The notes under the pieces: model-generated
Told to the model about the DNA's origin: nothing
What the model saw: the letters and a program-made list of their open reading frames with translations, nothing else
Database searches by the model: none
DNA from: Escherichia coli
GTDB lineage: Bacteria; Pseudomonadota; Gammaproteobacteria; Enterobacterales; Enterobacteriaceae
Length of the DNA: 64,000 nucleotides
Reading direction: 5' to 3' (one strand)
Assembly (NCBI RefSeq): GCF_048403405.1
Contig: NZ_CP183129.1
Made by a program: the position numbers and the translations under genes
Shown here: piece after piece, positions 4,457 to 49,030 of the stretch
How the letters are laid out: each line of letters opens with the position of its first letter
Numbering within the stretch: position 1 is the first letter of the stretch

Positions 4457-5095
4457 ATGCCCGGGCGCTTTGAACTAAAACCAACCCTGGAGAAAGTCTG
4501 GCACGCGCCAGACAATTTTCGCTTCATGGACCCGCTGCCGCCGATGCATCGTCGGGGGATCATTATTGCCGCCATTGTATTGGTGGTCGGATTTCTGCTT
4601 CCATCTGATGATACGCCCAACGCGCCGGTGGTGACGCGTGAAGCGCAGTTAGATATTCAGTCGCAATCACAACCACCGACAGAAGAACAGCTGCGGGCGC
4701 AATTAGTCACGCCACAAAATGATCCTGATCAGGTGGCTCCGGTCGCTCCAGAACCAATACAGGAAGGCCAGCCAGAAGAGCAGCCGCAACCCCCCCAAAC
4801 GCAACCATTCCAGCCAGATAGCGGAATTGATAATCAATGGCGCTCTTACCGTGTCGAACCCGGTAAAACGATGGCACAGCTGTTCCGCGACCACGGGCTG
4901 CCCGCTACCGATGTCTATGCAATGGCGCAGGTAGAAGGCGCGGGTAAGCCGCTGAGTAATTTGCAAAACGGGCAGATGGTGAAAATCCGCCAGAACGCCA
5001 GCGGCGTGGTGACGGGCTTAACCATTGATACGGGGAATAATCAACAGGTCTTGTTTACCCGCCAGCCGGATGGCAGTTTTATTCGTGCGCGGTAG
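4457..5095 (+). CDS. ytfB: Cell-division-associated OapA/LysM-domain protein YtfB
   Basis: Track ORF starts 4421; ATG at 4457 is preceded by AGGAGGA (4446..4452); 212 aa with one TM helix, a Pro/Gln-rich linker and a C-terminal OapA-like domain. Confidence 0.85.
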
Positions 5096-6568: not shown

Positions 6569-6596
6569 AAAACGCCGACCAGTGGTCGGCGTTTTT
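6569..6596. terminator. Bidirectional intrinsic terminator between convergent yjfZ and rplI
   Basis: AAAACGCCGACC-AGTG-GTCGGCGTTTTT: 10-12 bp GC stem flanked by an A-run and a T-run, so it serves both strands. Confidence 0.65.
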
Positions 6597-13547: not shown

Positions 13548-14612
13548 ATGAGTAAAGTGAAAAGTATCACCCGTGAATCCTGGATCCTGAGCACTTTCCC
13601 GGAGTGGGGTAGCTGGCTGAATGAAGAAATTGAACAAGAGCAGGTCGCCCCTGGCACATTTGCGATGTGGTGGCTAGGCTGCACCGGGATCTGGCTGAAA
13701 TCAGAAGGTGGCACCAACGTTTGCGTTGATTTCTGGTGCGGCACTGGCAAACAAAGTCACGGTAACCCGTTAATGAAACAGGGTCACCAGATGCAGCGCA
13801 TGGCTGGCGTGAAAAAACTGCAGCCAAACCTGCGCACCACCCCGTTTGTTCTTGATCCGTTTGCGATTCGCCAGATCGACGCGGTACTGGCGACTCACGA
13901 TCACAACGATCATATCGACGTTAACGTCGCTGCTGCCGTGATGCAGAACTGTGCTGATGACGTACCGTTCATTGGACCGAAAACCTGCGTTGATTTGTGG
14001 ATTGGCTGGGGCGTACCGAAAGAGCGTTGCATCGTGGTCAAACCGGGCGATGTTGTAAAAGTGAAAGACATTGAAATTCATGCGCTTGACGCTTTCGACC
14101 GTACTGCACTGATCACCCTGCCTGCCGATCAAAAAGCGGCTGGCGTACTGCCAGATGGCATGGACGATCGCGCAGTAAACTACCTGTTCAAAACCCCTGG
14201 CGGTTCCCTGTATCACAGTGGCGATTCCCACTACTCTAACTATTATGCGAAGCACGGTAACGAACATCAGATCGATGTGGCGTTAGGATCGTACGGTGAG
14301 AACCCGCGCGGTATTACCGACAAAATGACCAGCGCCGATATGCTGCGTATGGGTGAAGCCCTGAATGCGAAAGTGGTTATCCCGTTCCACCACGACATCT
14401 GGTCAAACTTTCAGGCCGATCCGCAAGAAATCCGCGTGCTGTGGGAGATGAAAAAAGATCGTCTGAAGTATGGCTTCAAGCCGTTTATCTGGCAGGTGGG
14501 CGGCAAATTTACCTGGCCGTTGGATAAAGACAACTTCGAGTACCACTATCCGCGTGGTTTCGATGATTGCTTCACTATTGAACCGGATCTGCCGTTCAAG
14601 TCATTCCTGTAA
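13548..14612 (+). CDS. ulaG: L-ascorbate-6-phosphate lactonase UlaG (metallo-beta-lactamase fold)
   Basis: ATG at 13548 gives [10 protein letters not shown]..., 354 aa; HDHNDH metal-binding motif present. Confidence 0.9.
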
Positions 14613-14625
14613 TCTGTCGTTTATA

Positions 14626-14657
14626 CCGGATAGCGTGGAGTAGTTCGCGCTATCCGG
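14626..14657 (+). terminator. REP-like hairpin downstream of ulaG (CCGGATAGCG ... CGCTATCCGG)
   Basis: 10-bp inverted repeat with a 12-nt loop, 14 nt after the ulaG stop; only a weak T-tract follows. Confidence 0.4.
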
Positions 14658-14719
14658 CGTAGTATTTCCTGGCTATTTCAAATATCATCTAAAAAAATCA
14701 AATTTTATCGGAATAGCTC

Positions 14720-15475
14720 ATGACTGAAGCACAAAGACATCAAATCCTCCTGGAAATGCTCGCACAATTGGGCTTTGTGACCGTTGAGAAAGTCGTTGAG
14801 CGTCTGGGAATTTCGCCTGCCACTGCGCGACGCGATATCAATAAACTTGACGAAAGCGGCAAACTGAAAAAAGTGCGCAATGGCGCAGAAGCTATTACCC
14901 AGCAGCGCCCACGCTGGACGCCGATGAATCTGCATCAGGCGCAGAATCACGATGAAAAAGTACGTATTGCTAAAGCGGCCTCGCAGCTGGTTAATCCGGG
15001 CGAAAGCGTAGTCATCAACTGCGGCTCCACCGCGTTTCTGCTTGGGCGGGAAATGTGTGGCAAGCCTGTGCAAATCATCACTAATTATCTACCGCTGGCA
15101 AATTACCTGATCGATCAGGAGCATGACAGCGTGATCATTATGGGCGGACAATACAACAAAAGTCAGTCCATCACTTTAAGCCCGCAAGGCAGCGAAAACA
15201 GTCTCTATGCCGGGCACTGGATGTTTACCAGCGGCAAAGGGCTGACAGCAGAAGGGTTGTATAAAACCGATATGCTGACGGCAATGGCAGAGCAGAAGAT
15301 GCTAAGCGTGGTAGGGAAACTGGTGGTACTGGTTGATAGCAGTAAGATTGGCGAACGCGCGGGAATGCTTTTTAGCCGTGCCGATCAAATCGATATGCTG
15401 ATCACCGGCAAAAATGCTAACCCGGAAATCCTGCAACAACTGGAAGCGCAAGGGGTCAGCATTCTGCGTGTTTAA
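14720..15475 (+). CDS. ulaR: DeoR-family HTH repressor of the ula operon, UlaR
   Basis: ORF 14720..15475, 251 aa; N-terminal HTH and DeoR C-terminal sugar-phosphate-binding domain. Confidence 0.9.
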
Positions 15476-16221
15476 AGATGCTGCCGGAAAAATGTCACGG
15501 CAGCATCTAACGCCTCAGGCGTAATGCGGTGACGCACGCCTGGCTGCCATGAACAGGTTAGCAGTTTATCCCGTCCCGTCTCGCTTAAGGCCTGCTGCAA
15601 ACGTAGTGATTCGTCGGCAGGCACGACGTCATCGTCAAGGCCATGCCACAGCAGTAGAGGTCTGTCACCAAGTTGTTCCAGGTGGTTTGTCGCTTCCCAC
15701 TCTGCCAGCGGCGCGACAATGTTATTGAATTCATTCTGCTGTGCTGCCGTTTCAGGTATCAGCGGTGGAAACAGTGAACGGGCGAGCGATGTAAAATAGC
15801 CCGATCCCATCATGCTGGCGGTACATTTCACCGTGGGGTGGCGAGCGGTAATTCCCAGTGCCGTCATCGCGCCCATCGACGCGCCACCGACTGCCAGACG
15901 GTCAGCAAGCAGCCAGTTTTCTTCGGCTATTGCCGCACGTAACGTAGTGAATTCCTGCATGCTTTGTAGCAAAATTTGCCAAAATTGATTTAACCGCCGC
16001 GCTGCGTCGCCCCTAAAACGGCTACCGTGATCGGGCGCATCCGGCATGATCACTCGCAAACCAGCCTGCGCCAGCGCAACGGCAAAATAGCTATACACCA
16101 GACTGGACGAAGTAAAGCCGTGATAAAAAATCGCGCACGGTAACGGGGTATCTTTTTGCCCGGCAGGATAAGCATGAAGAACGGGAATATCTGCCAGCTC
16201 GCGTGATTCTATTTCAATCAT
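15472..16221 (-). CDS. yjfP: Alpha/beta-hydrolase esterase YjfP
   Basis: ORF 15472..16221, 249 aa; GASMG serine-hydrolase motif; stop codon overlaps the ulaR stop on the opposite strand (TTAA). Confidence 0.85.
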
Positions 16222-16402
16222 CTGTCTCTCCTTTTTGTCTGGTATGACATGAAGAAATCCTTAGCACAAGTTTCTGCTGGCGGTATTAGTTCATAATGTT
16301 GAGATGTGGGTTACGCTTTCGTCACGTTTTCATTCGAAAATCGCGTACCAGGTAACAATTCGGGAACATTCCCCCAAAGTTAAATTAATAAGGCACTACA
16401 CT

Positions 16403-16732
16403 ATGGTTAGCAGGAAACGTAATAGCGTTATTTACCGGTTTGCCAGTTTATTATTGGTGTTGATGTTAAGTGCCTGTAGCGCACTGCAAGGTACGCCACA
16501 GCCAGCACCGCCAGTAACGGACCATCCGCAAGAGATTCGCCGCGACCAGACGCAAGGGTTACAGCGAATAGGTAGCGTAAGCACGATGGTTCGGGGTTCT
16601 CCGGATGACGCATTAGCAGAAATCAGAGCGAAAGCTGTCGCTGCAAAAGTTGATTATTACGTTGTCGTCATGGTGGACGAAACCATCGTGACAGGACAGT
16701 GGTATTCACAAGCCATTTTGTACCGTAAATAA
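16403..16732 (+). CDS. bsmA: DUF1471 lipoprotein BsmA (YjfO)
   Basis: Track ORF from 16304; ATG at 16403 gives MVSRKRNSVIYRFASLLLVLMLSAC... with a lipobox; 109 aa. Confidence 0.8.
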   Translation: MVSRKRNSVIYRFASLLLVLMLSACSALQGTPQPAPPVTDHPQEIRRDQTQGLQRIGSVSTMVRGSPDDALAEIRAKAVAAKVDYYVVVMVDETIVTGQWYSQAILYRK

Positions 16733-16880: not shown

Positions 16881-17156
16881 ATGAAACAATTACTTGCCTC
16901 ACCCTCGCTGCAATTAGTGACTTATCCTGCGAGCGCCACGGCACAGTCTGCAGAATTCGCCAGTGCTGACTGCGTGACAGGCCTGAATGAAATAGGTCAG
17001 ATCTCAGTTAGCAATATTTCAGGGGATCCGCAGGACGTGGAACGTATCGTGGCGTTAAAGGCCGATGAACAAGGTGCGTCATGGTACCGCATTATTACCA
17101 TGTACGAAGACCAGCAGCCTGATAACTGGCGCGTACAGGCGATACTGTATGCATGA
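16881..17156 (+). CDS. yjfN: DUF1471 small periplasmic protein YjfN
   Basis: ATG at 16881 gives MKQLLASPSLQL..., 91 aa; paralogous to BsmA and YjfY. Confidence 0.8.
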   Translation: MKQLLASPSLQLVTYPASATAQSAEFASADCVTGLNEIGQISVSNISGDPQDVERIVALKADEQGASWYRIITMYEDQQPDNWRVQAILYA

Positions 17157-17181
17157 GTATCATCTACAGCAAATGAACAAT

Positions 17182-17215
17182 GCCGGATGCGGCGCGAGCG
17201 CCTTGTCCGGCCTAT
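17182..17215. repeat. REP (repetitive extragenic palindromic) element between convergent yjfN and aidB
   Basis: GCCGGATGCGGCGCGAGCGCCTTGTCCGGCCTAT closely matches the enterobacterial REP consensus. Confidence 0.65.
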
Positions 17216-17272: not shown

Positions 17273-18898
17273 TTACACACACACTCCCCCCGTCGCCCGC
17301 AGCAATAAATCATTCTGGATCTGCTCTGACAACCGTACGCCGCCGCGCGTATCTAACATCACCTGACACCACGCCTGCGCCATTGGCGGAGAGGCATATT
17401 TCAACATTTGCGCACCGCAGCCCAGCAGGAATAGCTGATGAGTAATCTCTCGCCCCAGTTCTTCAGCAGGCTTACGCAGCTGCTGCTGTAAACGACGTAC
17501 CGCGCGATCAAAATAGCGATCCTGCCCTTTCACTTCCACAAATGCTTCCGACAATAAGTCGTATACACCCGCTTGCTTATTGAGCACGCGCAGTACATCC
17601 AGGCACATAATATTACCGGAACCTTCCCAAATACTGTTTACCGGTATCTCCCGGTAAAGCCGCGGCAGCTCGCTCTCCTCGCAATAACCAATGCCGCCCA
17701 GCACCTCCATCGCTTCGGCCACAAACGGCATACCTCGTTTGCAGATCACAAATTTCGCCGCAGGCGTAAATAAACGCGCCCACAGAGCTTCTTTGGCATC
17801 GGCACGCCGGTCCCACGCTCGCGCAAGACGAAACAGCAACGCCGTTTGCCCTTCAAGCTGAAGTGCCATGCGACTTAAGACATGACGCATAAGGGGCTGT
17901 TGGATCAATGGATTACCAAAAACATGGCGTTGATGTGCATGATAAATCGCTAGCGAAAATGCACGGCGCATCATGGCATGGCTACCCAGGGCGCAATCAA
18001 AACGCGTCATCCCACCCATTTTCAGGATCAGACGAATTCCTTCCCCTTCCTGCCCCAACAACCAGCCAATGGCATCCTGAAACTCCACTTCGCAGCTGGC
18101 GTTAGAGCGATTACCCAGCTTATCTTTCAGCCGCTCGAGGCGAATCGCGTTGCGTTGCCCGTCAGGCAAAAAGCGCGGCACAAAAAAGCAGGACAAACCG
18201 CCCGTAGTCTGCGCCAGCACCAGATGCGCATCGCTTTGCGGCACCGAGAAAAACCATTTATGCCCCACCAGCCGATAAGAGCCATCTTCCAGGCGCTCTG
18301 CGCGGGTGGTGTTGCTCATGACATCGGAACCGCCCTGCTTTTCCGTCATTCCCATGCCAATCAACAAACCGCGTTTTTGCCCACCTGGCAATAAGTGAGA
18401 ATCGTAGCGATCGCTCAACAGCGGCGTGGTCCAGTCCTGAAACGGCGCGGGTAACATCTGTAACAGCAATGGCATGGCGGCAAAGGTCATCGTTATCGGA
18501 CATAACGACCCTGCCTCAACCTGTGCGTGCAACATAAAACGCGCCGCGCGCGCCACAAATGCGCCGGAGCGAGCGTCTTCTTCCCAGGCAAGATTGTGCA
18601 CCCGATTGGTACATAGCGCCTGCATCAGCAGGTGCCAGGCGGGGTGAAAACGCACATCGTCCAGACGCCGCCCCTGGGCATCGTAGCGCAATAATTCAGG
18701 CGGATTCACATTCGCCAGCCGCCCCAGTTCAAGGGATTCAGCCGTCCCTAACTGCTGACCAATACTGGCTAGAAAATCGCTATCCCAGCCAGCACCTTCA
18801 CGCGTTACCGCTTCGCAGAGCGCGCCATCAGACAGGTATAAGTTGCTGTTATTTAATGGCATAGGTTGATTAAAAACGGTGTGAGTTTGCCAGTGCAC
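17273..18898 (-). CDS. aidB: Acyl-CoA dehydrogenase-family adaptive-response protein AidB
   Basis: ORF 17273..18916; conventional GTG start at 18898 gives MVHWQTHTVF..., 541 aa; in-frame ATG at 18913 is an alternative. Confidence 0.9.
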   Translation of the reverse strand: MHWQTHTVFNQPMPLNNSNLYLSDGALCEAVTREGAGWDSDFLASIGQQLGTAESLELGRLANVNPPELLRYDAQGRRLDDVRFHPAWHLLMQALCTNRVHNLAWEEDARSGAFVARAARFMLHAQVEAGSLCPITMTFAAMPLLLQMLPAPFQDWTTPLLSDRYDSHLLPGGQKRGLLIGMGMTEKQGGSDVMSNTTRAERLEDGSYRLVGHKWFFSVPQSDAHLVLAQTTGGLSCFFVPRFLPDGQRNAIRLERLKDKLGNRSNASCEVEFQDAIGWLLGQEGEGIRLILKMGGMTRFDCALGSHAMMRRAFSLAIYHAHQRHVFGNPLIQQPLMRHVLSRMALQLEGQTALLFRLARAWDRRADAKEALWARLFTPAAKFVICKRGMPFVAEAMEVLGGIGYCEESELPRLYREIPVNSIWEGSGNIMCLDVLRVLNKQAGVYDLLSEAFVEVKGQDRYFDRAVRRLQQQLRKPAEELGREITHQLFLLGCGAQMLKYASPPMAQAWCQVMLDTRGGVRLSEQIQNDLLLRATGGVCV

Positions 18899-23119: not shown

Positions 23120-23151
23120 AAAAAAAAACCATCCAAATCTGGATGGTTTTT
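23120..23151 (-). terminator. Strong intrinsic terminator after rlmB (A9-CCATCCA-AATC-TGGATGG-T5; symmetric, bidirectional in form)
   Basis: 7-bp stem flanked by a 9-nt A-run and a T-run; read on the minus strand it is hairpin plus U9, directly downstream of the rlmB stop. Confidence 0.65.
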
Positions 23152-43835: not shown

Positions 43836-46800
43836 GTGCGCCTGATTATCACTTTTCTGATGGCCTGGTGCCTCAGTTGGGGGGCGAACGCCGCGACGGC
43901 CCCCGATAGCAAACAAATCTCACAAGAACTGGAGCAGGCAAAAGCGGCGAAACCCGCGCAACCGGAAGTCGTAGAGGCGCTCCAGTCTGCCTTAAATGCG
44001 CTTGAGGAACGGAAAGGTTCCCTTGAGCGCATCAAGCAATATCAAGAAGTCATTGATAATTATCCGAAACTCTCCGCTACTCTGCGCGCGCAATTAAACA
44101 ACATGCGTGACGAGCCGCGCAGCGTGTCACCGGGGATGTCTACCGACGCGCTGAATCAGGAAATTCTCCAGGTCAGCAGCCAGTTGCTGGATAAAAGCCG
44201 TCAGGCCCAGCAAGAGCAGGAACGCGCCCGCGAGATTGCCGATTCGCTGAATCAACTGCCGCAACAGCAAACCGATGCCCGCCGTCAGTTAAATGAAATC
44301 GAGCGCCGCCTGGGGACGCTTACCGGCAATTCCCCGCTCAATCAGGCACAAAATTTCGCGTTGCAGTCTGACTCCGCACGTCTGAAAGCGCTCGTCGATG
44401 AACTGGAACTGGCGCAGCTGTCCGCCAATAACCGCCAGGAATTAGCGCGCTTGCGCTCAGAGCTGGCGGAAAAAGAGAGCCAGCAACTGGATGCGTATTT
44501 GCAGGCCTTACGTAATCAGTTGAATAGCCAACGTCAGCTTGAGGCGGAGCGGGCGCTGGAAAGTACCGAATTACTGGCAGAAAACAGTGCCGATTTGCCG
44601 AAAGATATCGTCGCGCAATTCAAAATTAACCGCGAACTATCGGCAGCGCTGAATCAACAGGCGCAGCGGATGGATCTCGTTGCCTCGCAACAGCGTCAGG
44701 CTGCCAGCCAGACGTTACAGGTCCGGCAGGCGTTGAATACGCTGCGTGAACAGTCGCAATGGCTGGGATCGTCCAATCTGCTCGGCGAAGCGTTGCGGGC
44801 GCAGGTGGCACGGCTGCCGGAAATGCCAAAACCACAACAGCTTGATACCGAAATGGCGCAGTTGCGTGTGCAACGGTTACGCTATGAGGATCTGCTTAAT
44901 AAACAGCCGCAGCTAAGGCAAATTCATCAGGCCGACGGTCAGCCGCTGACCGCCGAGCAAAACCGTATTCTGGAAGCACAGCTACGCACTCAGCGTGAGT
45001 TGCTGAACTCATTGTTGCAGGGTGGAGACACGCTACTACTGGAACTGACCAAGCTGAAAGTCTCCAACGGACAACTGGAGGATGCGCTGAAAGAGGTGAA
45101 TGAAGCGACGCACCGCTATCTGTTCTGGACCTCTGACGTGCGCCCGATGACCATCGCCTGGCCGCTGGAAATCGCCCAGGATCTGCGTCGTCTCATTTCG
45201 CTGGACACCTTCAGTCAGTTGGGCAAAGCCAGTGTGATGATGCTGACCAGTAAAGAGACAATTTTACCGCTGTTTGGCGCGTTGATTCTGGTCGGTTGCA
45301 GTATTTACTCACGCCGCTATTTCACCCGTTTTCTTGAACGTTCGGCGGCGAAAGTCGGCAAAGTGACTCAGGATCACTTCTGGCTGACGTTACGCACTCT
45401 TTTCTGGTCGATTCTCGTCGCGTCACCGCTACCGGTGCTGTGGATGACGCTGGGTTACGGCTTGCGCGAGGCGTGGCCTTATCCGCTGGCGGTAGCGATT
45501 GGTGATGGCGTAACAGCCACCGTACCGCTGCTATGGGTAGTGATGATTTGCGCTACCTTTGCCCGCCCGAACGGCTTATTTATCGCTCATTTTGGCTGGC
45601 CGCGCGAACGGGTTTCCCGTGGGATGCGCTACTACCTGATGAGCATTGGGCTTATCGTGCCGCTGATTATGGCGCTGATGATGTTCGATAATCTCGACGA
45701 CCGCGAGTTTTCCGGTTCGCTGGGACGGCTTTGCTTTATCCTCATTTGCGGTGCGCTGGCGGTGGTCACTCTCAGTCTGAAAAAGGCCGGGATCCCGCTG
45801 TATCTCAACAAAGAAGGCAGCGGTGACAACATTACCAACCATATGCTGTGGAACATGATGATTGGCGCACCGCTGGTTGCCATTCTGGCGTCGGCGGTGG
45901 GTTATCTGGCAACGGCGCAGGCACTGTTAGCGAGGCTTGAAACCTCGGTTGCCATCTGGTTCCTGCTACTAGTGGTTTATCACGTTATCCGCCGCTGGAT
46001 GCTGATCCAGCGCCGCAGGCTGGCGTTTGACCGGGCGAAGCATCGCCGGGCAGAGATGTTAGCGCAACGTGCGCGTGGCGAAGAGGAAGCTCATCATCAC
46101 AGTAGCCCGGAAGGGGCAATTGAAGTCGATGAAAGCGAAGTCGATCTCGATGCCATCAGTGCGCAATCCTTGCGGCTGGTGCGCTCAATTTTGATGTTGA
46201 TCGCCCTGCTTTCGGTCATTGTGCTGTGGTCAGAAATCCATTCCGCTTTCGGCTTCCTCGAAAATATTTCGCTGTGGGATGTCACCTCCACGGTACAGGG
46301 CGTAGAAAGTCTGGAGCCGATTACCCTCGGTGCGGTGCTGATTGCCATTCTGGTGTTTATCATCACCACGCAGCTGGTGCGCAACCTGCCCGCGCTGCTG
46401 GAACTGGCGATTTTGCAGCACCTGGATTTAACGCCGGGTACGGGCTACGCCATCACCACCATCACCAAATATCTGCTGATGCTGATTGGCGGGCTGGTCG
46501 GCTTCTCAATGATTGGTATTGAGTGGTCGAAATTGCAGTGGCTGGTTGCCGCGCTCGGTGTTGGTCTCGGTTTTGGTTTGCAGGAAATTTTCGCCAACTT
46601 TATCTCTGGCCTGATCATCCTGTTCGAAAAACCGATTCGCATTGGCGATACGGTAACGATCCGCGATCTTACTGGTAGCGTGACGAAAATTAACACCCGT
46701 GCCACCACCATCAGCGACTGGGACCGTAAAGAGATAATCGTGCCGAACAAGGCATTTATTACCGAGCAGTTTATCAACTGGTCGCTCTCTGACTCGGTCA

Positions 46801-47159
46801 CGCGCGTGGTGTTGACGATTCCGGCCCCTGCCGATGCCAACAGTGAAGAAGTGACGGAAATCCTGCTCACCGCAGCGCGTCGCTGCTCGCTGGTGATCGA
46901 CAACCCGGCACCGGAAGTCTTCCTGGTGGATCTGCAACAGGGGATTCAGATTTTCGAGCTGCGTATTTACGCCGCTGAGATGGGTCACCGTATGCCGCTA
47001 CGCCATGAGATCCACCAGCTAATTCTGGCAGGCTTCCACGCCCACGGTATCGATATGCCATTCCCGCCCTTCCAGATGCGTCTGGAAAGCCTCAACGGTA
47101 AACAAACGGGGAGAACGCTGACGTCTGCGGGCAAAGGTCGTCAGGCGGGAAGTTTGTAA
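43836..47159 (+). CDS. mscM: Miniconductance mechanosensitive channel MscM (YjeP)
   Basis: ORF 43836..47159 (GTG start), 1107 aa; signal peptide, long coiled-coil periplasmic region, multi-TM region and C-terminal MscS-like domain. Confidence 0.9.
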   Translation: MRLIITFLMAWCLSWGANAATAPDSKQISQELEQAKAAKPAQPEVVEALQSALNALEERKGSLERIKQYQEVIDNYPKLSATLRAQLNNMRDEPRSVSPGMSTDALNQEILQVSSQLLDKSRQAQQEQERAREIADSLNQLPQQQTDARRQLNEIERRLGTLTGNSPLNQAQNFALQSDSARLKALVDELELAQLSANNRQELARLRSELAEKESQQLDAYLQALRNQLNSQRQLEAERALESTELLAENSADLPKDIVAQFKINRELSAALNQQAQRMDLVASQQRQAASQTLQVRQALNTLREQSQWLGSSNLLGEALRAQVARLPEMPKPQQLDTEMAQLRVQRLRYEDLLNKQPQLRQIHQADGQPLTAEQNRILEAQLRTQRELLNSLLQGGDTLLLELTKLKVSNGQLEDALKEVNEATHRYLFWTSDVRPMTIAWPLEIAQDLRRLISLDTFSQLGKASVMMLTSKETILPLFGALILVGCSIYSRRYFTRFLERSAAKVGKVTQDHFWLTLRTLFWSILVASPLPVLWMTLGYGLREAWPYPLAVAIGDGVTATVPLLWVVMICATFARPNGLFIAHFGWPRERVSRGMRYYLMSIGLIVPLIMALMMFDNLDDREFSGSLGRLCFILICGALAVVTLSLKKAGIPLYLNKEGSGDNITNHMLWNMMIGAPLVAILASAVGYLATAQALLARLETSVAIWFLLLVVYHVIRRWMLIQRRRLAFDRAKHRRAEMLAQRARGEEEAHHHSSPEGAIEVDESEVDLDAISAQSLRLVRSILMLIALLSVIVLWSEIHSAFGFLENISLWDVTSTVQGVESLEPITLGAVLIAILVFIITTQLVRNLPALLELAILQHLDLTPGTGYAITTITKYLLMLIGGLVGFSMIGIEWSKLQWLVAALGVGLGFGLQEIFANFISGLIILFEKPIRIGDTVTIRDLTGSVTKINTRATTISDWDRKEIIVPNKAFITEQFINWSLSDSVTRVVLTIPAPADANSEEVTEILLTAARRCSLVIDNPAPEVFLVDLQQGIQIFELRIYAAEMGHRMPLRHEIHQLILAGFHAHGIDMPFPPFQMRLESLNGKQTGRTLTSAGKGRQAGSL

Positions 47160-47265: not shown

Positions 47266-47294
47266 CAACTCATCGTCGGAGAGACGATGAGTTG
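47266..47294. other. 12-bp perfect hairpin in the mscM / yjeM convergent junction (CAACTCATCGTC-GGAGA-GACGATGAGTTG)
   Basis: Perfect inverted repeat read directly; no flanking T or A run, so not a canonical intrinsic terminator. Confidence 0.5.
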
Positions 47295-47309: not shown

Positions 47310-48812
47310 TCAGTCGAGAGCTAACTCAGGTTTATTCGCCATGCGACTGCAATAGTTCTGGTAAATCGCCATCGCTAACAGCGAGAAGAAGACAGGGCCG
47401 CCAATCATCCACAATGTGCTGTCCCAGTCTCCGGCTTCAACCACAGGCTGAATAATGGTGAAGACGTTCGCAAATGTCACCACCAGAACGACAACCACCG
47501 TCGCAATCATTGCCGACATACGCGTTTTGAAAATCACAAACGGTCTGTCGAGATCCTGACGTGCTTTAAAGAATGGGAAAGCCAGCGCGAGGAACAGGTA
47601 AGGAAGCGTCATAGACACGTTCGCCATCAGCGTCAGCTTGTTAAAGAACGCCGATGCGGTACCGCCACCAAACGAAACCAGCAGGATGAAGACAGTAACC
47701 AACCCGCACTGCATCCACATGGCGATAGACGGCATCCCCATCGCATTCAGGCGCGTCATCGGTTCCGGCCACAACGCTTTCGGCGTCCCCTGGATGATGG
47801 CTTTCAGCGGTGAATAGCAAAGCGTAAAGAACGCACCGGTATAAGCGAGGAACATCGAAAGTCCGGTAATACGCGCAAACCATACGCCCAGCGACAATGA
47901 CGCTTCTGGTGACAAATGCAGTGCGTTACCCAGCGTCACCCCGAGGCTCTTCATCAGCACATAGGTAATATTGCCGAGGTTAACGGAACCATTACTTAAT
48001 ACCTGCTGCCAGTTTGTGCTGACGCCCCATAAAAATATTGCCAGCGAATAACCGATTGAAATAACAATAGCGGCAAAAACAATACCTTTGGCAAAGTTCT
48101 TTTCTGGATTTTCCGTTTTATCGACCAGACCACCAACCGCTTCAATTCCGCCATAGGCAAAAATAGCAAATACCACAAACGATAGCATTGCCAGACCGGA
48201 CTGATAACCTGGGTTCGGTGATGCAAGGAAATTAATATCCTGCGCGAAATGCCCACCATTTAATAACAAAATAGTAATGCTTACTAACAGCAATACTAAA
48301 TTCAGACACATTACTGCAATACCGCCCACCGCAGTAATGCGGGCAATTTTATTAATCCCCTTTGAAGCAACGACGGTGACCAGAATCATCCATGCCACTG
48401 CCAGCAGACCAACCACCTGCGTAGGCTCCAGTCCGGTAATACGCCAGTGCTGGGTCATGTCGCTACCATAGAGGAATGTTGAGAACGGTACCCAAACTTT
48501 CGCGGAGGTACTCACCATCCAGATGATATAAGAGGAAAACCACATAAATGTACCAATGAAGGCAAAACGTGGTCCGACACTATTATTCATCCAGGAATAG
48601 ATACCACCTTCTTCTTTGCGATAAGCAGCTCCCATTTCAGCCATCATTAAGGCGAATGGAATAAAGAATAACAATGCAGAAAATATATAAAAGGGAATCG
48701 CACTATAACCCATTAAGTAATAAGCCGATGGGCTATTGGCAAATCCAAATACGGAAGTAAAGATCATCAATATGAGTCCTATCAGACTCATCTTTTTTAT
48801 CGTGTGAGGCAT
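47310..48812 (-). CDS. yjeM: APC-superfamily amino-acid transporter YjeM
   Basis: Track ORF to 48854; ATG at 48812 gives MPHTIKKMSLIGLILM..., 500 aa polytopic. Confidence 0.85.
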   Translation of the reverse strand: MPHTIKKMSLIGLILMIFTSVFGFANSPSAYYLMGYSAIPFYIFSALLFFIPFALMMAEMGAAYRKEEGGIYSWMNNSVGPRFAFIGTFMWFSSYIIWMVSTSAKVWVPFSTFLYGSDMTQHWRITGLEPTQVVGLLAVAWMILVTVVASKGINKIARITAVGGIAVMCLNLVLLLVSITILLLNGGHFAQDINFLASPNPGYQSGLAMLSFVVFAIFAYGGIEAVGGLVDKTENPEKNFAKGIVFAAIVISIGYSLAIFLWGVSTNWQQVLSNGSVNLGNITYVLMKSLGVTLGNALHLSPEASLSLGVWFARITGLSMFLAYTGAFFTLCYSPLKAIIQGTPKALWPEPMTRLNAMGMPSIAMWMQCGLVTVFILLVSFGGGTASAFFNKLTLMANVSMTLPYLFLALAFPFFKARQDLDRPFVIFKTRMSAMIATVVVVLVVTFANVFTIIQPVVEAGDWDSTLWMIGGPVFFSLLAMAIYQNYCSRMANKPELALD

Positions 48813-49030
48813 GAAACCATCCTTCATTTCAGCGCGTGTATAAAACGCGCCCACTGAACTGCACTGCCCAACATTGAGCGGGCAGCGTAAAAACCAATAC
48901 AGAATTGATACCTGGATGATATCAAATATCCAGTCTTAAATTGTGGCCTTTAGCGGAAAAATGAAAACATATGCTACAGAATGGCGCTTATCACGCCATT
49001 CTTCGCGGTTAATTCAGTAATTTTTCAGAA

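Follow-up and report, generated by a model that had tools for sequence, protein, structure and literature searches.

Stop codons of the convergent ulaR and yjfP genes of Escherichia coli interlock on a four-nucleotide TTAA overlap

Overlaps between prokaryotic genes have a modal length of 4 bp, and four tetramers, i.e. CTAA, TTAA, CTAG and TTAG, have been named for opposite-strand genes whose stop codons interlock within a single tetranucleotide (Lillo & Krakauer 2007, PMC2174442). The same study found 58 convergent overlaps in E. coli, with an intrinsic terminator being predicted for 23 of the 116 genes involved (20%), and it already raised the point that convergent overlap forces terminators into coding sequence (PMC2174442). 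A second related system is the convergent excludon, in which neighbouring genes on opposite strands have overlapping transcripts. ExcludonFinder (2025, PMC12288877) placed yjfP-ulaR among 165 convergent excludons of MG1655, the pairs being listed if their transcripts overlap in at least 50% of 58 MG1655 RNA-seq samples. Bidirectional terminators are described as hairpins lacking intrinsic-terminator features which act independently of Rho as pause sites positioning head-on collisions of RNA polymerases (10.1101/2022.10.23.513370); such terminators between convergent E. coli genes, with termination driven by collision, were reported by Ju et al. 2019, as summarised in Wang et al. 2022 (10.1101/2022.10.23.513370). 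Finally, MG1655 4415796 on the minus strand is listed as a region of Rho termination that lies antisense to the aidB 3' end (PMC7815308, supplementary file 2).

Here we analysed the junction of ulaR and yjfP in a 64,000-nucleotide stretch of E. coli DNA, in the following called the window. Direct reading of positions 15470-15479 (gtttaaagat) and both open reading frames bear out the preliminary description according to which the two stop codons overlap on TTAA (Table 1). The stops can interlock in this way because TAA is self-complementary with an offset of one base. Both genes make use of all four bases, which leaves two substitutions that are silent in both: T1 to C, which turns the Leu codon CTT of yjfP into CTC and the ulaR stop TAA into TAG, and A4 to G, which turns the yjfP stop TAA into TAG and the Val codon GTT of ulaR into GTC. 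The pair thus belongs exactly to the 4-nt class of Lillo & Krakauer and shows no material difference from it, the phylogenetic depth of the pair and the observation of the doubly silent variants being what is added here.

Table 1. Features at and around the ulaR/yjfP junction, in window coordinates.
Feature	Position	Strand	Details and source
Terminator-like hairpin with 14-bp stem, CCGGATAGCG...CGCTATCCGG, in the ulaG-ulaR spacer	14626..14657	+	Scan; bounds the ulaR unit upstream
ulaR coding sequence	14720..15475	+	251 aa, end GVSILRV; stop TAA at 15473-15475; ORF list
C-rich, G-poor stretch, candidate rut-like Rho-loading region	15232..15391	-	Composition scan
Tetramer TTAA, both stop codons, 4-nt tail-to-tail overlap	15472..15475	.	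Sequence and conservation
yjfP coding sequence	15472..16221	-	249 aa, end TFFRQHL; stop TAA is the complement of 15472-15474; ORF list
Perfect 11-bp inverted repeat AGATGCTGCCG / CGGCAGCATCT with 11-nt spacer	15476..15508	.	Arms 15476-15486 and 15498-15508
Divergent bsmA/yjfP promoter region, source of yjfP transcription	16222..16402	.	Annotation; bsmA at 16403-16732

Pfam, NCBIfam and RefSeq identify ulaR as encoding the DeoR-family repressor of the L-ascorbate ula regulon and yjfP as encoding an alpha/beta-hydrolase esterase. UlaR carries the Pfam domains HTH_DeoR and DeoRC and matches the NCBIfam equivalog PRK13509 over residues 1-251 of 251, and YjfP matches Hydrolase_4/Peptidase_S9/Abhydrolase in Pfam and the esterase equivalog PRK10566 over residues 1-249 of 249. 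Of 5426 complete E. coli genomes, 5422 contain the 1.8 kb around the junction, which are 100% identical to strain GN02461; the RefSeq annotation of that strain shows the same arrangement of ulaR and yjfP. In K-12 MG1655, RefSeq gives the identical 4-nt overlap (yjfP 4416952..4417701, plus strand; ulaR 4417698..4418453, minus strand). The tail-to-tail overlap joins two genuine protein-coding genes and not open reading frames that arose spuriously by chance. It is not unusual, representing the commonest kind of convergent overlap in prokaryotes. Within 41.8 kb of annotation around the junction, two of the seven convergent pairs overlap, i.e. yjfP/ulaR and ytfB together with a TetR-family pseudogene. 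In the latter pair, ytfB (plus strand) and the TetR/AcrR-family pseudogene (minus strand) share a 17-nt tail-to-tail overlap at about window positions 5078-5094 according to RefSeq for the identical strain.

We used loci from a species-level genome scan with YjfP and from look-ups of further homologues, counting the 19 loci in which an intact ulaR of 251 codons adjoins yjfP. These took in the window, K-12, five other Escherichia lineages, five Citrobacter species, two Salmonella lineages, two Leclercia contigs, one metagenome-derived locus (JGI) and Huaxiibacter. On the yjfP strand, most of the 19 loci have TTAA, while Escherichia sp. E1V33 has TTAG and both C. gillenii and Citrobacter FP75 have CTAA; no other variants are present among them, so that all 19 tetramers belong to the set TTAA/TTAG/CTAA/CTAG. 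Because the overlap is exactly 4 nt in 19 of 19 loci with an intact adjacent ulaR, it is older than the split of Escherichia, Salmonella and Citrobacter. YjfP (FF-x-x-x-L before the stop) terminates at the identical residue also in Kosakonia, Pluralibacter, Intestinirhabdus and an Enterobacter species, in which ulaR is non-adjacent; in Pluralibacter and Intestinirhabdus, yjfP is followed by a spacer with obvious G+C-rich hairpins. Judged from these comparisons, selection on the two conserved protein C-termini suffices to explain the persistence of the overlap.

Enterobacter sp. EA-1 (locus L017, 3241-3290) has a 12-nt gap together with apparent frameshifts in both ulaR and yjfP, which are possibly assembly indels, and Kosakonia oryzendophytica (locus L011, 3248-3275) has lost ulaR, the last approximately seven codons of which (KILRV and stop) still abut the yjfP stop. 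We considered both as exceptions to the overlap and rejected them as uninformative, the genes being frameshifted in the one and ulaR being a remnant in the other. The two proteins diverge very unequally: among Escherichia species, UlaR identity is 99.6-100%, falling to 96% against Citrobacter, whereas YjfP reaches only 87-92% and 71-74% in the respective comparisons. One Logan contig (locus L028, 3001-3669; protein P0105) codes for a chimeric protein in which YjfP(1-158) is joined to UlaR(187-251), the fusion point being located at a stretch of approximately 20 nt that aligns to ulaR and yjfP in opposite orientation and the contig ending 89 nt later; this represents either a real inversion across the TTAA junction or an assembly fold-back.

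Since there is no intergenic DNA, a ulaR mRNA including its own stop codon necessarily takes in four bases of yjfP, and vice versa, so that each 3' end lies inside the partner gene and the 3' regions are mutually antisense. A ribosome at translation termination needs some mRNA 3' of the stop codon, and real transcripts therefore run further into the partner gene. We show by this geometry that short antisense 3' regions are obligatory for both transcripts, in agreement with the earlier claim that each transcript must end inside the other gene. The accompanying claim of no space for terminators stands in that there are zero intergenic nucleotides, but has to be qualified in that, in the strain of the window, a strong hairpin is located in the yjfP tail directly past the ulaR stop; this hairpin is neither a canonical terminator nor conserved.

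With a consensus scan, no intrinsic terminator was detected around the junction. Canonical terminators of the intrinsic type were also rejected for the approximately 760 nt following each stop, where a permissive scan yielded only weak, chance-level candidates; the region 14400-16500 holds four terminator-like sites compared to 2.9 +/- 1.8 expected, which is chance level. Past the yjfP stop, from +81 to +240 and antisense to ulaR, the candidate rut-like stretch has a C content of 0.33-0.38 and a G content of 0.12-0.17 (C/G 1.9-3.0), and the sequence downstream of ulaR has a C/G ratio of about 1.0-1.1 for 280 nt and is not clearly C-rich. A known RNA family at the junction was rejected as well, Rfam showing no match there at E <= 1. 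Between yjfN and aidB, at 17138-17212, Rfam gives a sub-threshold match to the REP-derived naRNA4 on both strands (30.6 bits, gathering threshold 59.5). Upstream of ulaR, binding of UlaR to the ulaG-ulaR spacer in front of its own gene has been reported (PMC5934670).

In the curated Term-seq and Rho tables published by Adams et al. 2021 (PMC7815308), neither yjfP nor ulaR is listed, and no coordinate falls within MG1655 4417400-4417999. The nearest 3' ends listed in these tables are 4416702, inside bsmA, and 4425120, at rpsF, with none in between, and this gap over the yjfP-ula segment probably reflects low expression under the conditions used. At the neighbouring convergent junction of yjfN and aidB, the recorded region shows that Rho ends such antisense read-through locally. 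The ulaR/yjfP junction resembles this situation, as the RNA past each stop is untranslated and antisense and a C-rich, G-poor stretch follows yjfP, but differs in that the aidB antisense has a recorded Rho region, whereas yjfP and ulaR are without a recorded bicyclomycin-sensitive region in the MG1655 data of Adams et al., where low expression could mask one. The aidB-antisense Rho region corresponds to about window position 17377, assuming no indels relative to K-12, and presumably reflects read-through from the convergent neighbour yjfN/bsmA.

The hairpin begins 1 nt past the ulaR stop and lies within the last 11 codons of yjfP, its arms encoding the YjfP residues D-A-A and R-Q-H-L. It is predicted to fold on both strands with dG values of -21.7 and -21.1 kcal/mol (z -7.6 and -8.0 compared to shuffles), two pairs being added to the 11-bp stem and a 6-nt loop being left, and 3000 of 3000 synonymous recodings of this peptide were less stable. 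The stem is not followed by a U tract, the plus strand continuing with AACGCCTC and the minus strand with TTAAACAC. On the yjfP strand the stem finishes 1 nt before the stop codon, so that a transcript terminated just after it would carry hardly any RNA beyond the stop. The 64-kb window holds four perfect inverted repeats of this kind (11 bp or longer, loop 3-15 nt) compared to 0.23 expected, three of the four being located at convergent gene junctions. Elsewhere in the window, a 12-bp perfect repeat (CAACTCATCGTC-GGAGA-GACGATGAGTTG, 47266-47294) without U tract lies in the 150-nt gap between the convergent open reading frames 43836..47159 (plus strand) and 47310..48854 (minus strand) and looks like a non-canonical bidirectional terminator hairpin. 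Textbook terminators with A and U tracts are present at 6569-6595 and 23124-23151; the AAAACGCCGACC..GGTCGGCGTTTT terminator lies between the convergent yjfZ and rplI genes and the AAAAACCATCC..GGATGGTTTTT terminator downstream of rlmB.

The exact 60-nt junction containing the perfect stem is found in 25 of 5426 complete E. coli genomes. The majority allele (3331 of 5426, including K-12) has CGC in place of the CGG of the window in one Arg codon (position 15500), which results in a C-C mismatch in the stem and a dG of -13.9, and in other Escherichia species most of the stem pairing is lost. In an alignment of 17 taxa, the E. coli register is paired to 57% with no compensatory pairs, which is equalled by shuffles. 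An alternative register, GCTGGCGG/CCGCCAGC, in C. koseri and Salmonella shows 73.5% pairing and one compensatory pair in Salmonella; it was matched by 21 of 500 shuffles, which is inside the stated false-positive range of the tool, follows from the codons most commonly used for Leu, Ala, Arg and Gln and is also found in Intestinirhabdus, where there is no overlap. A conserved terminator hairpin was therefore rejected, the allele being rare and lost in other Escherichia and covariation being absent in either register. Using a null model of synonymous codons, the yjfP tail has a mean stability z of -1.4 in 17 genomes with the overlap compared to -0.7 on the yjfP strand and -0.1 on the ulaR strand in seven genomes without it. 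This contrast (Mann-Whitney p = 0.14 for the yjfP strand and p = 0.02 for the ulaR strand, uncorrected for phylogeny) is weak. Compared across genomes, the hairpin is a rare one-SNP variant and not a conserved element, and we do not treat it as selected.

Different readings of the junction have to be weighed against these data. That one of the two open reading frames is not a real gene or ends elsewhere, leaving no true overlap, is extremely improbable, nothing having been found in its favour. An earlier in-frame stop, which according to the preliminary description would refute the overlap, is inapplicable as an open reading frame by definition ends at its first in-frame stop, and both frames do so here; together with the end-to-end matches of UlaR and YjfP to curated equivalog models and the C-terminal peptides of both proteins being kept across genera, this rules out a mis-annotated gene end. 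Moreover, UlaR is a repressor that was studied experimentally (PMC5934670), and YjfP carries a carboxylesterase annotation in RefSeq. We regard it as doubtful that the hairpin acts as a bidirectional terminator or pause element within the coding sequence, setting both 3' ends by pausing and head-on collision. Like the bidirectional terminators, it is a palindromic hairpin at a convergent meeting point, folding on both strands in the absence of a U tract; those terminators lack intrinsic features, act Rho-independently and function as collision-positioning pauses (10.1101/2022.10.23.513370). The perfect 11-bp stem with a dG of about -21 kcal/mol and a z of about -8 on both strands, its stability exceeding that of all synonymous recodings, and the enrichment of such repeats in the window, with three of four at convergent junctions, are consistent with such a role. 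However, the hairpin is located inside a coding sequence and not in a spacer, has no mapped 3' ends and is perfect in just 25 genomes, most E. coli including K-12 carrying the mismatched, less stable allele. Its loss in other Escherichia species, the 57% pairing without covariation in 17 taxa and the marginal alternative register of Citrobacter and Salmonella, which is shared by the overlap-free Intestinirhabdus, argue against it. So does the position of the stem on the yjfP strand, where almost no RNA would remain past the stop, as well as the lack of a recorded Term-seq 3' end in K-12, which carries the mismatched allele and in which the region appears poorly expressed under the conditions used. 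It is quite unlikely that the hairpin is a bidirectional pause/collision terminator that also protects the 3' end of the ulaR mRNA, its alleles tuning the antisense run and hence the UlaR level. The natural alleles concerned are the perfect 11-bp stem, present in about 0.5% of E. coli genomes, and the mismatched stem, present in about 61%, with weaker forms elsewhere.

Another reading is that of a functional excludon: yjfP transcription, possibly driven by sigma-S from the bsmA/yjfP region, would run antisense into ulaR and lower UlaR, the reverse also being possible. Colliding RNA polymerases and/or cleavage of the duplex by RNase III would bring this about, thereby tying esterase expression to de-repression of the ascorbate genes. 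We consider this unlikely. The listing of the pair among the 165 convergent excludons, with overlap in at least 50% of the 58 MG1655 transcriptomes (PMC12288877), is in line with it, but such a label is nearly automatic for genes the coding sequences of which already overlap. Excludons are defined by mutually exclusive expression and RNase III processing, whereas yjfP-ulaR was classed by transcript overlap alone; both share neighbouring opposite-strand genes with overlapping transcripts, but for yjfP-ulaR the transcripts overlap as a necessary result of the overlapping coding sequences and not through long 3' UTRs. In the literature searched we found no report on reciprocal expression or RNase III cleavage for yjfP-ulaR, and the literature mentioning yjfP contained no duplex-RNA data on it. 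The zero-gap arrangement is kept across at least five genera, which counts in favour of this reading, but this conservation is fully explained by selection on both protein termini. A ChIP-seq peak of sigma-S RNA polymerase has been assigned to bsmA/yjfP (PMC4447067), supporting a possible sigma-S input, whereas the lack of Term-seq 3' ends and Rho regions at the locus points to low expression and hence to rare collisions. An overlapping functional RNA imposing additional synonymous constraint was considered and rejected: among 11 ulaR sequences, the last 30 codons show a synonymous divergence of 0.267 per codon compared to 0.334 for the whole gene, a slight lowering that favours a functional excludon but is small, the 5' end of ulaR being lower still, and the yjfP tail shows no dip (0.282 compared to 0.269), which speaks against it. 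Of the consequences anticipated beforehand, antisense 3' UTRs are thus upheld by the geometry and the excludon listing, while convergent interference is not, synonymous constraint being not clearly in excess. Nothing in the present analysis demonstrates regulatory coupling of yjfP and ulaR.

Taking these data together, we consider it likely that ulaR/yjfP represents a neutral but constrained, ancient and ordinary 4-nt stop-stop overlap of two real, unrelated genes. Once formed, the arrangement would be held by protein-level selection on the C-termini, i.e. FFRQHL in YjfP and ILRV in UlaR, each followed directly by the stop. Weighing somewhat against this reading are the tendency to more stable yjfP tails in genomes with the overlap and the slight synonymous dip at the ulaR end, the latter possibly hinting at additional constraint. 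It follows from the geometry that each mRNA has to run into the coding sequence of its partner, giving rise to short antisense 3' regions. Past each stop the antisense RNA is untranslated and is most likely ended by Rho, a rut-like stretch following the yjfP stop, and subsequent trimming may bring the ends back to local structure; in the strain of the window, the perfect hairpin right past the ulaR stop could add a pause or a structure protecting the 3' end. We infer that the transcripts are ended by Rho and local structure and not by dedicated terminators.

The arrangement is already known at three levels, i.e. reference annotation, the overlap class as analysed in 2007 and the excludon catalogue, and the junction as such matters little, being an annotated overlap of a described class in a catalogued pair. 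It is of modest value as a clean natural test case, since no gap separates the convergent genes and the hairpin within the coding sequence occurs in a series of alleles. The perfect and the one-mismatch stem differ by a single synonymous base and could be used to probe whether hairpins of this kind determine where RNA 3' ends or polymerase collisions are located at a junction without intergenic space.
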